DNA from: a virus
Lineage: Duplodnaviria; Caudoviricetes
DNA length: 64,000 nucleotides
Virus record (IMG/VR): IMGVR_UViG_3300028886_000028
Span: 160,001-224,000 of that record
Reading direction: 5' to 3' (one strand)
The position numbers and the translations under genes are program-made. A model generated the notes under the pieces. That model was not told the origin of the DNA. It searched no databases and worked only from the letters and a program-made list of their open reading frames with translations. Numbering within the stretch: position 1 is the first letter of the stretch; each line of letters opens with the position of its first letter. Shown piece by piece: positions 27,897 to 30,825 of the stretch.

Positions 27897-28301
27897 ATGA
27901 TATTAAGGTTAATAGAATCTGATTTGCATAAGCTAATATCTTCTACAGTTAAGAAAATATTAAAGGAGAATTCAGAAAATAATGTAATATTAAGTAAAAT
28001 AGTTGAAGGCTTATCAATCTCTGGTATTCCATCAAAAATAGGGATGAATCAGGTAGACATCCCTCTTGATTACAATGGTAATGTTATCGCATGCATAGAT
28101 TATGAAATAGAAGAAAAACAAGGAGATTATAATGTGTTTATAACGTCTATTGTAATAGATGACGATGGTAAAGAATTCGAAATTGAAGATAATGGCATGG
28201 TTACGAATGCATTAAAAAATTTAATTGAACCGTGGACAGAAGATGTTGGATATTATGAAGAAGATGACGACCAATCTGGATGGAATGAAAATTGGAAATA
28301 A
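27897..28301 (+). CDS. Putative internal head protein, acidic
   Basis: MILRLIESDLHKLISSTVKKILKE leader. Confidence 0.6.
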   Translation: MILRLIESDLHKLISSTVKKILKENSENNVILSKIVEGLSISGIPSKIGMNQVDIPLDYNGNVIACIDYEIEEKQGDYNVFITSIVIDDDGKEFEIEDNGMVTNALKNLIEPWTEDVGYYEEDDDQSGWNENWK

Positions 28302-28333
28302 ATAATAATTATTATATAAAAACATTAAGAAAC

Positions 28334-28462
28334 ATGGCATGTGGATGTAAAAACAAGGCAGCAAATGCAAGTACAAATGTGGTAAAATCAGCCCCAACAC
28401 AGGAGTCTAAGCCTCAGAAGACTTCAAATGGAGCAAGAATAATCAAAAGAGAAATTAGATAA
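28334..28462 (+). CDS. Small basic protein MACGCK... (42 aa)
   Basis: ATG..TAA ORF read manually, filling the intergenic gap. Confidence 0.55.
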   Translation: MACGCKNKAANASTNVVKSAPTQESKPQKTSNGARIIKREIR

Positions 28463-28464
28463 TT

Positions 28465-28821
28465 ATGATTGACGCACCAAAAACAACATTATTAAATAAT
28501 ATAGATGACTTGGATTTAGTATTTCTTGAAGGGGAAAACGATTTAGAGTTTGAAATAGATGATTATTCATTTGTTGTAACATATTCCCTAGAAGAAGATG
28601 ATTTTTTCACTGAAGATGATGAGGAAATCAAAGGAGGAAAAAAACTGAAAATTTTATCAATAAACGCATATGATAATGTAGAGAATGAAGACATAAACGT
28701 TAACGTTGATGACGAAATGCAAAAATTATTCTCAGATTATTATAAAAATATGTTAAATGATGAAGGATATGAGCCATTAAATGTTAATTTTGGTGAATTT
28801 TCTGATTTTATGGATGAATAA
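28465..28821 (+). CDS. Highly acidic hypothetical protein
   Basis: D/E-rich ORF. Confidence 0.6.
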   Translation: MIDAPKTTLLNNIDDLDLVFLEGENDLEFEIDDYSFVVTYSLEEDDFFTEDDEEIKGGKKLKILSINAYDNVENEDINVNVDDEMQKLFSDYYKNMLNDEGYEPLNVNFGEFSDFMDE

Positions 28822-28910
28822 TTTCTTTTTTTGATATTTTTTTTGTATCTTTGCTAAAAGAAATTAATGGGGCAGAGCGTTACCTAAGAGACAACAGCCC
28901 CATTAAATTT

Positions 28911-28992
28911 GGCAGAATGGCGGAATTGGCAGACGCGCATCACTCAAAATGATGTATCTCATGGTGTAAGGGTTCAAGTCCCTTTTCTGCTA
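28911..28992 (+). tRNA. tRNA-Leu(CAA)
   Basis: GGCAGAA/TTCTGCT acceptor, CATCA-CTCAAAA-TGATG anticodon arm, long variable region, GGTTCAAGTCC T arm. Confidence 0.88.
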
Positions 28993-29039
28993 CAATTATA
29001 AAAGTAGTCCAACCTTGGCAAAGGTTAAAATATAAAACA

Positions 29040-29180
29040 AGGAAAGTAACAGCAAGCATTTGTAATACGCGATGGCTCCGCTGACTAATATGGTCGTTTA
29101 GGTTCGAATCCTAACATATGAGGATAACTCGTAGTGTGGTGGAATTGGTAGACACGGCGGAATAATTAAAATTCTTTCCT
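29040..29180 (+). ncRNA. Circularly permuted tRNA-like RNA (YrlA/Y-RNA-like architecture)
   Basis: Order is variable arm, T arm (TTAGG-TTCGAAT-CCTAA), acceptor-like hairpin closed by GATAA, then Leu-type D arm. TCCGC/GCGGA and AGGAAAG/CTTTCCT form closing stems. Confidence 0.7.
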
Positions 29181-29188
29181 AAATAGAT

Positions 29189-29276
29189 GCTCTTGTGGTG
29201 GAATTGATAGACACCCCAGAATTAGAATCTGGTGCGAAATAATAGTAGCGTGTGGGTTTGAGTCCCTCCAGGAGCA
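29189..29276 (+). tRNA. tRNA-Leu(TAG), atypical
   Basis: GCTCTTG/CAGGAGC acceptor, CCAGA-ATTAGAA-TCTGG anticodon arm. The D loop has GA instead of GG and the T loop is TTTGAGT. Confidence 0.75.
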
Positions 29277-29617
29277 CTTTTTTGAAATAAATAATATTTA
29301 TATTATGAGTCCTTGTTGGCATTGCCCTTATTTCAATAAAATGGGAAAAAGGTATTTTTGCTCATTGAAGGGTATCTATTTAACAGAAAATGGTGTAGAT
29401 TTTTGCTCTGGGCCGAGTTACAAATATAAAAAGAAACATAAAAATAGAAAAAAATGAAGAATATAACACGACAACAACAGCAACAAAGTTAAGTCGTATC
29501 AACCATATGGGAACGGTTGATACTGATATTGTATTAACCAATCCTATTTATATTATAATTATTTTTTACCTTAAGTTCCCATTAGTAACAATACTGATGG
29601 GATTTTTTGTTTTATAA

Positions 29618-29689
29618 TGGAGAGTGGTATAACGGCCATTACACGAGATTTTGGTCCTCGGAATCCGGGTTCGATTCCCGGCTCTCCAA
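29618..29689 (+). tRNA. tRNA-Gln(TTG)
   Basis: TGGAGAG/CTCTCCA acceptor, anticodon loop TT-TTG-GT, CCGGG-TTCGATT-CCCGG T arm. Confidence 0.88.
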
Positions 29690-29696
29690 CAAAAAA

Positions 29697-29783
29697 TGGG
29701 AGTTGGCCGAGTGGTTTAAGGCGTGTGCCTCTGGAACACATGTAGACATAAATCTACCGTAGGTTCGAATCCTACATTCCCAA
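29697..29783 (+). tRNA. tRNA with CTG (Gln) anticodon and long class-II variable arm
   Basis: TGGGAGT/ATTCCCA acceptor; TGTGC-CTCTGGA-ACACA anticodon arm; GTAGA-CATAAA-TCTAC variable arm; GTAGG-TTCGAAT-CCTAC T arm. Confidence 0.8.
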
Positions 29784-29853
29784 CTTTGAAAAAATGTTTT
29801 TTAACGTTAGTATATATTTATTCAAAATAAGAAATTAATTTTGAATAAAGAAA

Positions 29854-30045
29854 ATGGAATATTTTGTAGATACAGAAAGAATTAGTTTGGATTATTCATA
29901 TGATAGAATATTTAAAGAAATACCAAAATATAGATTAACATTATATGATAAATATGGGCATTTTGATGCTGACGTTTATTTAACAGATGAACAAATTGAA
30001 GATTTGCTCACGGGACTTGAAAAAATAAAAAATAACATTAAATGA
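29854..30045 (+). CDS. Hypothetical protein
   Basis: ORF track. Confidence 0.55.
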   Translation: MEYFVDTERISLDYSYDRIFKEIPKYRLTLYDKYGHFDADVYLTDEQIEDLLTGLEKIKNNIK

Positions 30046-30182
30046 TATGGGTACATTATTTAATTTTGCAATGCATGTTATTTTATGGCCTATTGTTTTG
30101 TTTCTGGTCTTTACAGCGACTACGAATATTGATTTAATTTTTTATGCTATAAAGAAAGTATTAATTAAAATAAAAGAATATT

Positions 30183-30392
30183 ATGAATTTATTAGAAAAC
30201 GTATTTGTAAAAAAAGCAATAAAGTCGATGATGACGGCGGAGCAATTCGAGACTATGCAGAATTTTATGACAGCAGTTCAGTCTGGGAAGATTGACCAAA
30301 ACAAACTTAAAAATGTTGGTGAAAAATTATCTAAAATATCGCCGGAAGAAGTGAATAATCTTTTGGACATAATAGACAAAAACTTGAAGTAG
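30183..30392 (+). CDS. Hypothetical protein
   Basis: ORF track; overlaps the 30047..30295 ORF. Confidence 0.5.
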   Translation: MNLLENVFVKKAIKSMMTAEQFETMQNFMTAVQSGKIDQNKLKNVGEKLSKISPEEVNNLLDIIDKNLK

Positions 30393-30438
30393 TAATTCAA
30401 CTACTCAAGTTTTTCTTTTTTTATAAAAACATTTTTAA

Positions 30439-30825
30439 ATGGTACATGTTATTAATATAAAAACTGATGATAAGACAATGGATGAAGGATATTTCTACGT
30501 AGGCCGTAGCAAATATAATAATTCTCCACTTGGAAACCCCTTTACATGTAAAGGAAAGCGAACAAGTTTAGCAAAACTATCATTTCCAACAGTTGAACAA
30601 GCAATAGAAGCCTACGAAATGTATTTTGATGCCATGTACGGTAAAGATGAAGATTTCACGAAGGCTTTTGATGAAATATACGAATATTATAAAACTGGAA
30701 AAGATGTATATCTTGGATGTTTTTGTGCACCGGGTAAATGCCATGCATCTATCATTGCTAAAAAATTGCAACAGAAATTAATAAAGGAAAAAATGGAAGA
30801 AAGAAAAAAGGAGAAGCTCAAATAA
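30439..30825 (+). CDS. DUF4326-like protein
   Basis: YVGR...SPLGNPF...LGCFCAP..CHA. Confidence 0.8.
   Translation: MVHVINIKTDDKTMDEGYFYVGRSKYNNSPLGNPFTCKGKRTSLAKLSFPTVEQAIEAYEMYFDAMYGKDEDFTKAFDEIYEYYKTGKDVYLGCFCAPGKCHASIIAKKLQQKLIKEKMEERKKEKLK

Follow-up and report, generated by a model that had tools for sequence, protein, structure and literature searches.

Ro60/Y-RNA particles have been described in animals, in some bacteria and in a small number of phages; what they do in microbes is still poorly understood. YrlA (RF02553) is a tRNA-like Y RNA of bacteria and mycobacteriophages that is bound by Rsr/Ro60 (Chen et al. 2014, PMC4201824). The Ro60 protein of Thermus phage phiLo binds two phage RNAs, Yrl1 and Yrl2, both of which carry CGAA (PMC12135203; PDB 9KOP and 9L5Y). 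The Felixounavirus Bas63 encodes a Ro60-like protein, gp130, directly upstream of tRNA genes, which counters the Ppl defence; the authors suggest that some annotated Bas63 tRNAs might be Y RNAs, none of which was identified (PhageMaP preprint, 10.1101/2024.10.10.617714). A survey of jumbo phages mentions, in passing, TROVE proteins with a tRNA-like partner. The subject of this work is an element at positions 29040–29180 of a 64,000-nucleotide stretch (the window) that covers bases 160,001–224,000 of an IMG/VR virus record, IMGVR_UViG_3300028886_000028 (401,138 bp, estimated complete). The element is a genuine small RNA gene of 141 bases in a 401-kb rumen phage. With a probability of roughly 70%, it specifies a Y-RNA-like small non-coding RNA that combines a handle, to which a ring-shaped protein would bind, with a tRNA-Leu module. 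Its fold is conserved with covariation, and the handle defines a phage-wide family that co-occurs with the gene for a protein of predicted Ro60 fold.

The RNA appears to consist of two parts. The handle would comprise a terminal clamp of 7 bp and a single-stranded ACAGCAA presented in an asymmetric internal loop, while the second module would be a leucine-tRNA body that lacks the anticodon loop, has its acceptor end closed as a hairpin and folds into the tRNA elbow. In the clamp, the 5′ strand AGGAAAG (29040–29046, + strand, as are all parts of the element) forms seven Watson-Crick pairs with CUUUCCU (29174–29180). ACAGCAA (29049–29055), the family signature that the original prediction overlooked, begins 2 nt after the clamp and is followed by the 21-nt 5′ linker of the internal loop (29056–29076), which varies in length and sequence among relatives. 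The anticodon-stem-like helix then opens with the strand that is 3′ in a tRNA, UCCGC (29077–29081), which makes five pairs with GCGGA (29157–29161). Enclosed by this helix are a long class-II variable arm (29082–29097), in which 29083–29086 and 29092–29095 form a hairpin of four pairs including one G-U, and a T arm, UUAGG-UUCGAAU-CCUAA (29098–29114), with a stem of 29098–29102 and 29110–29114 and the loop UUCGAAU. These are succeeded by the closed acceptor-like hairpin (29115–29136), in which 29115–29122 pairs with 29128–29136 (8 bp, bulged G29134, loop GAUAA). The segment 29137–29156 contains U8-G9 (29137–29138), the Leu-type D arm GUG-GAAUUGGUAGA-CAC (stem strands GUG, 29139–29141, and CAC, 29153–29155, with a Leu-type loop) and G26 (G29156). 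The 3′ linker, AUAAUUAAAAUU (29162–29173, 12 nt), is A-rich, as it is in relatives. Over an exact 21-nt run the D arm is that of the phage's own tRNA-Leu(UAA) (genome c367952).

Direct reading and a pair-by-pair check located every helix that the original prediction had listed. ARAGORN detected no tRNA at the element as encoded; once the sequence was re-permuted (5′ half, any 7-nt loop, 3′ half), 60 of 80 end-and-loop variants were called as class-II tRNAs, the failures being only those in which the 3′ strand ended at 29120. This bears out the proposal of a full class-II tRNA body opened at the anticodon side. The proposed fold with extra pairs has an energy of −33.5 kcal/mol, against a minimum free energy of −36.4 kcal/mol; some 3 kcal/mol above the minimum is usual for tRNA-like RNAs. 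Plain folding is unremarkable on its own (z −1.7 and −2.5), and the case for structure rests on homologues, less on folding energy.

The element is built on the YrlA plan, yet stands outside YrlA membership. In both RNAs the 5′ and 3′ ends form a terminal helix, beside which the 5′ strand carries a conserved unpaired motif, and the effector module is a tRNA body whose T arm is followed by a closed acceptor-like stem and then by the D arm. A ring-shaped HEAT+vWA protein is the partner of YrlA and the predicted partner of the element. In addition, two paralogues of the element in this genome give full-length, sub-threshold matches to the YrlA model (34.3 and 27.6 bits, compared with a gathering cut-off of 69). 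The differences are equally clear. The Ro60-binding motif of YrlA is GNCGAAN0-1G (PMC4201824), whereas the element has ACAGCAA at that place; YrlA adjoins a TROVE gene, whereas the protein here is a DUF2828/DUF7788 protein without a TROVE Pfam match. The phage RNA is multi-copy and scattered in tRNA arrays, with swappable cargo, and the copy in the window imitates a tRNA of class II (Leu), long variable arm included. In contrast to phiLo, with which this phage shares the encoding of both a (predicted) Ro60-fold protein and stem-bulge-stem RNAs, the RNAs here do not use CGAA; those of phiLo do, are encoded immediately upstream of a gene recognisable as a Ro60 homologue, and are not described as carrying a tRNA body (PMC12135203).

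Homologues provide the evidence for the fold. A megablast search with window positions 28000–30500 returned zero matches among phage records. With blastn against phage records, similar elements that bear no annotation were detected in Xanthomonas phage XbC2 and Erwinia phage Kaldavass, both of them cultured jumbo phages. In these the parts follow one another as in the window copy: the clamp is AAGAAUUCA with UGAAUUCUU, the motif is again ACAGCAA, and the anticodon-like stem, AUAGC/GCUAU, departs from that of the window copy by three compensatory pair changes. A pattern scan of IMG/VR for ACAGCAA, the T loop and the Leu D loop gave 51 loci, from which 37 distinct elements were parsed. Most of the 37 combine a clamp with an anticodon-like stem that is paired but differs in sequence, compensated versions of this stem including AUAGC/GCUAU, ACUGG/CCGGU and AUCAC/GUGAU, and the linkers range from 14 to 25 nt on the 5′ side and from 8 to 14 nt on the 3′ side. 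A covariance model built from 26 of these sequences had 99 matches, 82 of them distinct, among the collected loci, including non-Leu paralogues and one cassette of coliphage EC6 from outside the seed. All five helices are kept in around 80 distinct relatives, which come from viral contigs and from the cultured phages XbC2, Kaldavass and EC6.

Because plain MAFFT placed the clamp strands of the 3′ side wrongly, pairs were counted on an alignment fitted to the model. Across the 82 distinct sequences of this alignment 91.4% of cells pair, compared with 41–46% when the partners are slid by 1–3 columns, and none of 500 shuffles attained the observed pair score. Changes on both sides were observed in 26 of the 27 pairs, which settles in the affirmative whether the homologues covary. 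All seven clamp pairs covary (helix 1 is 91% paired), confirming that AGGAAAG and CUUUCCU close the element as an outer stem; the T-arm helix (family helix 4) is 98.5% paired, and CAGCAA is present in 73 of the 82 sequences. An independent module parse, which was not fitted to the model, displayed the same compensations. A second covariance model, which leaves out the window copy and its two closest relatives, matches the element over its full length at 74.8 bits (E 3e-12); the element is its only significant match in the window and the best of three in the genome. By contrast, the Rfam YrlA model had no match in window positions 28800–29900 at E up to 10, so that the Infernal comparison placed the element in the handle family and not in YrlA. 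The element's T-acceptor-D order and its terminal helix, conserved with covariation, uphold the original prediction of a Y-RNA-like permuted tRNA mimic as opposed to a tRNA gene.

These data bear on two explanations in which the structure is incidental. The element might be the decayed remnants of two tandem tRNA-Leu copies that have lost their outer halves, the complementarity being inherited from the duplication. Tandem tRNAs with 5–8 nt spacers are indeed present in the cluster, and duplicated halves would pair automatically; this origin is nevertheless extremely improbable. The same architecture occurs with different, compensating sequence in about 80 distinct sequences across unrelated phages, the flanks form a conserved handle, and the leave-out model matches with the E value given above. 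Nor are the homologues recent copies of one sequence, as the mean column identity of the family alignment is 56%. The two-remnant scenario, which the original prediction had named as the case that would overturn it, is therefore excluded by the conserved, compensating homologues. Alternatively, the clamp, which is an inverted repeat at the DNA level, could be the terminal repeat of a small mobile DNA element, consistent with cassettes that are multi-copy and scattered. However, every copy is on the tRNA-sense strand and the clamp sequences covary, in place of being conserved like a transposase site. Among the non-Watson-Crick cells, G-U exceeds A-C by 129 to 40 (3.2 to 1); the helices have therefore been selected as tRNA-sense RNA and not as DNA repeats. 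A mobile element is thus very unlikely.

Permuted tRNA genes, which begin with the 3′ half of the tRNA and end with the 5′ half, occur in red and green algae and in archaea, as Soma et al. reportedly described in 2007. A permuted tRNA-Leu gene, whose transcript would be circularised or ligated at the anticodon side and opened at the acceptor side to yield a working tRNA, is accordingly an obvious reading of the same gene order, with complementary strands in both stems. The phage also encodes an RtcB RNA ligase (genome 316,545–317,735, locus L003; 197 bits), which is far from the handle RNAs. In algal and archaeal genes, however, a bulge-helix-bulge restores the anticodon loop. The anticodon-like stem of the element leads instead into the handle, through an asymmetric loop of 21 and 12 nt and the clamp, with no junction motif and no conserved 7-nt anticodon loop. 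In the family, moreover, the linkers vary in length and the same handle closes cassettes of 59–77 nt that have no cargo; in the window copy the acceptor ends are linked by a mere 5 nt and the helix is off register. The phage genome has no splicing endonuclease domain (PF01974), and it already contains five tRNA-Leu genes according to ARAGORN. A working permuted tRNA is hence hardly credible, and the permuted precursor that had been offered as one option for the element is not supported, there being no anticodon loop, no bulge-helix-bulge junction and, in the phage genome, no splicing endonuclease.

The handle is a feature of the whole phage. A genome scan for copies of ACAGCAA in which the bases just before the motif can form a helix with a strand further downstream identified about 12 cassettes, all on the + strand, which have the clamp helix and ACAGCAA in common. 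Membership of the handle family was defined by a covarying terminal clamp with (A)CAGCAA starting 0–3 nt after it; the element, in which UA separates AGGAAAG from ACAGCAA, belongs to it. Their clamps are all of the form (A)GGrAnn.../...nnUyCC(U). Nearly all are within the main tRNA array at 256–275 kb, where cassettes start at 256405, 257285, 257838, 258844, 264676, 268128, 268424, 269445 and 274467 (+); a further one starts at 367840 (+). As some cassettes are just 59–77 nt long and have no tRNA-like insert, while two besides the element carry permuted tRNA bodies, the clamp and ACAGCAA represent the common handle and the tRNA part its cargo. The window copy is the sole Leu-type copy in the phage, at a distance of 57–67 kb from the rest of the system. 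Two of the cassettes involve tRNA-Leu(UAA) sequences. At genome 367840–368159 (L002), a 17-bp inverted repeat, the + strand arm of which ends in GGGGA-ACAGCAA, encloses a tRNA-Leu(UAA) gene on the opposite strand. At 274467–274578 (L007), a handle cassette wholly contains the ARAGORN-called tRNA-Leu(UAA) at 274486–274568, which may be no tRNA gene but the cargo that a handle RNA carries.

The candidate partner is encoded at genome 246,260–247,882 (539 aa), 57 kb from the element and outside the window, in agreement with the observation that the window has no Ro60 gene. The protein matches DUF7788 (PF25043; E 1.4e-20) and, weakly, DUF2828 and vWA; the protein collection contains over 1,700 relatives. 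For an AlphaFold model derived from 33 sequences (pLDDT 80, pTM 0.79), the top nine PDB fold matches are all Ro60/TROVE proteins, aligned over the full length with TM scores of up to 0.57. They include frog Ro60, Deinococcus Rsr and the Ro60 of Thermus phage phiLo, and isolated vWA domains rank after them. In tblastn searches the partner reaches mycobacteriophage ‘Ro-like RNA binding proteins' at E ~1e-10. A search of the genome for TROVE/Ro60 and RtcB was thus negative for TROVE itself, and positive for a DUF2828/DUF7788 protein of predicted Ro60 fold and for RtcB.

The protein and the RNA travel together. DUF7788 is present in 12 of the 13 records that carry the RNA pattern and are at least 90% complete, compared with a background of 680 of 50,697 phage records (1.3%); XbC2 and Kaldavass also encode a DUF7788 protein. 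The association was in addition examined without preselection for the RNA, in five cultured phages picked by protein similarity alone: Leptolyngbya phage Lbo-JY46, Campylobacter phage F361, Bacillus phage FADO, Enterococcus phage Bop and Escherichia coli phage EC6. In all five, which span five host phyla or classes, two to five tandem cassettes with a clamp and (A)CAGCAA abut the gene on the same strand, whereas shuffled controls of the cassette search gave one or two scattered chance matches per strand. This co-occurrence, together with the predicted fold, favours the Y-RNA-like interpretation made at the outset. In EC6 (NC_027369.1; L069 8712–9480), four unannotated cassettes of the form AGACCG-UUUA-CAGCAA ... 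CGGUCU are located in the tRNA array just after an ‘RNA-binding protein' gene, and the last contains a permuted tRNA-like insert. EC6 is a Felixounavirus related to Bas63, and its DUF2828 homologue, which precedes the four cassettes, is in the position of gp130. The parallel has its bounds: no handle, motif or RNA is described for Bas63, the reported phenotype is for the protein alone, and gp130 is likened to the EC6 protein by description and position.

Several observations weigh against the view that the element is part of a Ro60-like particle. Fitting the alignment to the model favours structure in the pair counts, and the seeds were chosen by a pattern with ACAGCAA and a Leu D loop among its required parts, making the invariance of these parts partly a matter of construction. 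In the family register, four of the seven acceptor-like pairs of the window copy are non-canonical; its acceptor-like helix is one step off register and contains a bulge, its loop is the shortest observed, and the copy could be drifting. The three orthologues, in the window and in its nearest relatives L025 and L060, have unrelated acceptor-hairpin sequences, each of which forms a helix. With respect to the protein, the TROVE Pfam model (PF05731) matched nothing in the 401-kb genome with E allowed up to 1, the family profile had no match among PDB sequences, and the link of the partner to Ro60 rests on a predicted fold. The protein gene is also 57 kb from the element here, and one near-complete carrier record lacks a DUF7788 match.

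The last two points count in favour of another reading, in which the element would be a real handle-family RNA that acts without a Ro60-like protein, the clamp and ACAGCAA being a processing or stability signal on the transcript of the tRNA array or the site of another protein. The protein gene is likewise distant in XbC2 and Kaldavass, and a precedent is provided by the Class I RNAs of Dictyostelium (RF01414), eukaryotic RNAs of ~60 nt that have no tRNA cargo and a known binder with an RNA recognition motif (RRM) (PMC7919456). These share the layout of the phage cassettes: the two ends of the RNA meet in a short stem, the 5′ strand of which is immediately followed by a conserved motif of 11 nt, and the remainder is variable. 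The five near-invariant positions of the motif, T3, C6, C9, A10 and A11 (PMC7919456), are all matched by AGUAACAGCAA. The RF01414 model, at E up to 10, matched no phage cassette, its best hit (16.1 bits) being at an unrelated place. Weighed against the presence of DUF7788 in 12 of 13 carriers, and the immediate same-strand adjacency in every one of the protein-picked phages, a Ro60-independent role is considered unlikely.

RNA-library records point weakly to expression of the element. Two bovine metatranscriptome studies hold exact contigs, of 207 nt (29019–29225, X1) and 135 nt (29076–29210, X2), and a sheep run holds a variant of the L025 type. As these records are contigs, ends, strand and level are unreadable from them and uncovered bins carry no meaning; an adapter adjoins 29076 in just one 135-nt record of X2, and this lone observation is not taken as a 5′ end. 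Small shares in the runs X3 and X4 represent parts or relatives and are not evidence of habitat. The contigs may, moreover, reflect DNA carry-over, since the same run covers neighbouring coding DNA, and this is a further point on the opposing side.

The record has a G+C content of ~32%, and ARAGORN reports 34 tRNA genes and one tmRNA in it. The element is hosted by a small outlying tRNA cluster consisting of tRNA-Leu(CAA), the element, tRNA-Leu(UAG) and two tRNAs called as Gln. Both flanking genes were identified by ARAGORN and Rfam: tRNA-Leu(CAA) (28911–28993, +) is 46 nt upstream of the element and tRNA-Leu(UAG) (29189–29277, +) is 8 nt downstream. Around the element, Rfam models at the gathering cut-off and at E up to 10 returned only the four flanking tRNAs and chance matches. 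The element is thus positioned between tRNA genes and on their strand, an arrangement similar to that in L025, L060 and a further relative, L051; the gap from the end of the element to tRNA-Leu(UAG) is 5–8 nt in L051, L060 and the window. L025 (a 317-kb contig) and L060 retain both the clamp and the 3′ linker, and in them, too, the genes run Leu(CAA)-element-Leu(UAG)-Gln-Gln. Further upstream are genes for two DNA methylases and a ClpP-like protease, and small open reading frames without family matches. A scan for sigma-70-type promoters gave no excess over the shuffled expectation.

Other features of the cluster deserve mention in their own right. A hairpin, AACCUU-GGCA-AAGGUU (29011–29026, +), is located between tRNA-Leu(CAA) and the element. 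At 29463–29610 (+) there is a sub-threshold match to the Listeria small RNA rli38 model (33.9 bits versus 49), and this stretch closes in a terminator-like hairpin (29577–29602) followed by a T run; it may be a small RNA or merely the terminator of the cluster. The 88-nt tRNA at 29697–29784 (+) has a D arm of Ser/Leu/Tyr-like type, A73 and a long variable arm, but its anticodon is CUG (Gln), base 37 is G, and the anticodon stem contains a C-A mismatch. This tRNA adjoins a normal tRNA-Gln(UUG), a pair that is kept in L025 and L060. A Leu-like body that reads CAG codons would be unusual.

A mechanism can be outlined in which the RNA would be made on the transcript of the tRNA cluster and released by tRNA end-processing, the RNase P site of the downstream tRNA-Leu(UAG) serving to free its 3′ end. 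The ring protein would bind the handle, as Ro60 binds the stem and the 5′-strand motif of Y RNAs, and the tRNA-Leu look-alike might then tether the particle to, or soak up, a factor that reads the shape of a tRNA and not its anticodon. Candidates for this factor include an exoribonuclease partner (compare Ro60, Y RNA and PNPase), a tRNA-processing or repair enzyme, and a host anti-phage effector. We infer the binding of handle RNAs by the DUF2828 protein, as well as the function of the RNA, and the element may, as was suggested earlier, be a decoy for tRNA-targeting defences.

Together, the handle RNAs and the DUF2828 proteins look like a new branch of Ro60/Y-RNA particles. The RNA family is apparently widespread in phages and undescribed: no description of the handle or of the RNAs was found in the literature searched, the coverage of which left out most subscription journals, and none of the six cultured-phage records inspected has them annotated. 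They can be mistaken for tRNAs or for tRNA debris. The Ro60/Y-RNA design is seen here with another motif and with a protein family, DUF2828/DUF7788, that sequence databases do not tie to Ro60. This protein is encoded by 1.3% of sequenced phages, some of them easy to handle, including Felix O1-like coliphages, phages of Listeria, Enterococcus, Bacillus and Campylobacter, XbC2 and Kaldavass. It is conceivable, though this is put forward tentatively, that these systems constitute a second, phage-centred branch of Ro60/Y-RNA particles that displays swappable tRNA parts, in the window copy an entire tRNA-Leu body, as bait or adaptor in the conflict over tRNAs between phage and host. If this were true, the resemblance in layout and invariant positions to the Class I RNAs of Dictyostelium would mean that the same recognition of handle by protein exists in eukaryotes, and members with a 7-bp acceptor, cut by RNase P and provided with CCA as is M. 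smegmatis YrlA, could even give rise, on the ring, to a tRNA-Leu in two pieces that can be charged. For one Felixounavirus, an anti-defence phenotype has already been reported for a Ro60-like protein in this position, and the RNA family therefore offers a concrete partner with which to probe tRNA mimicry in such particles.
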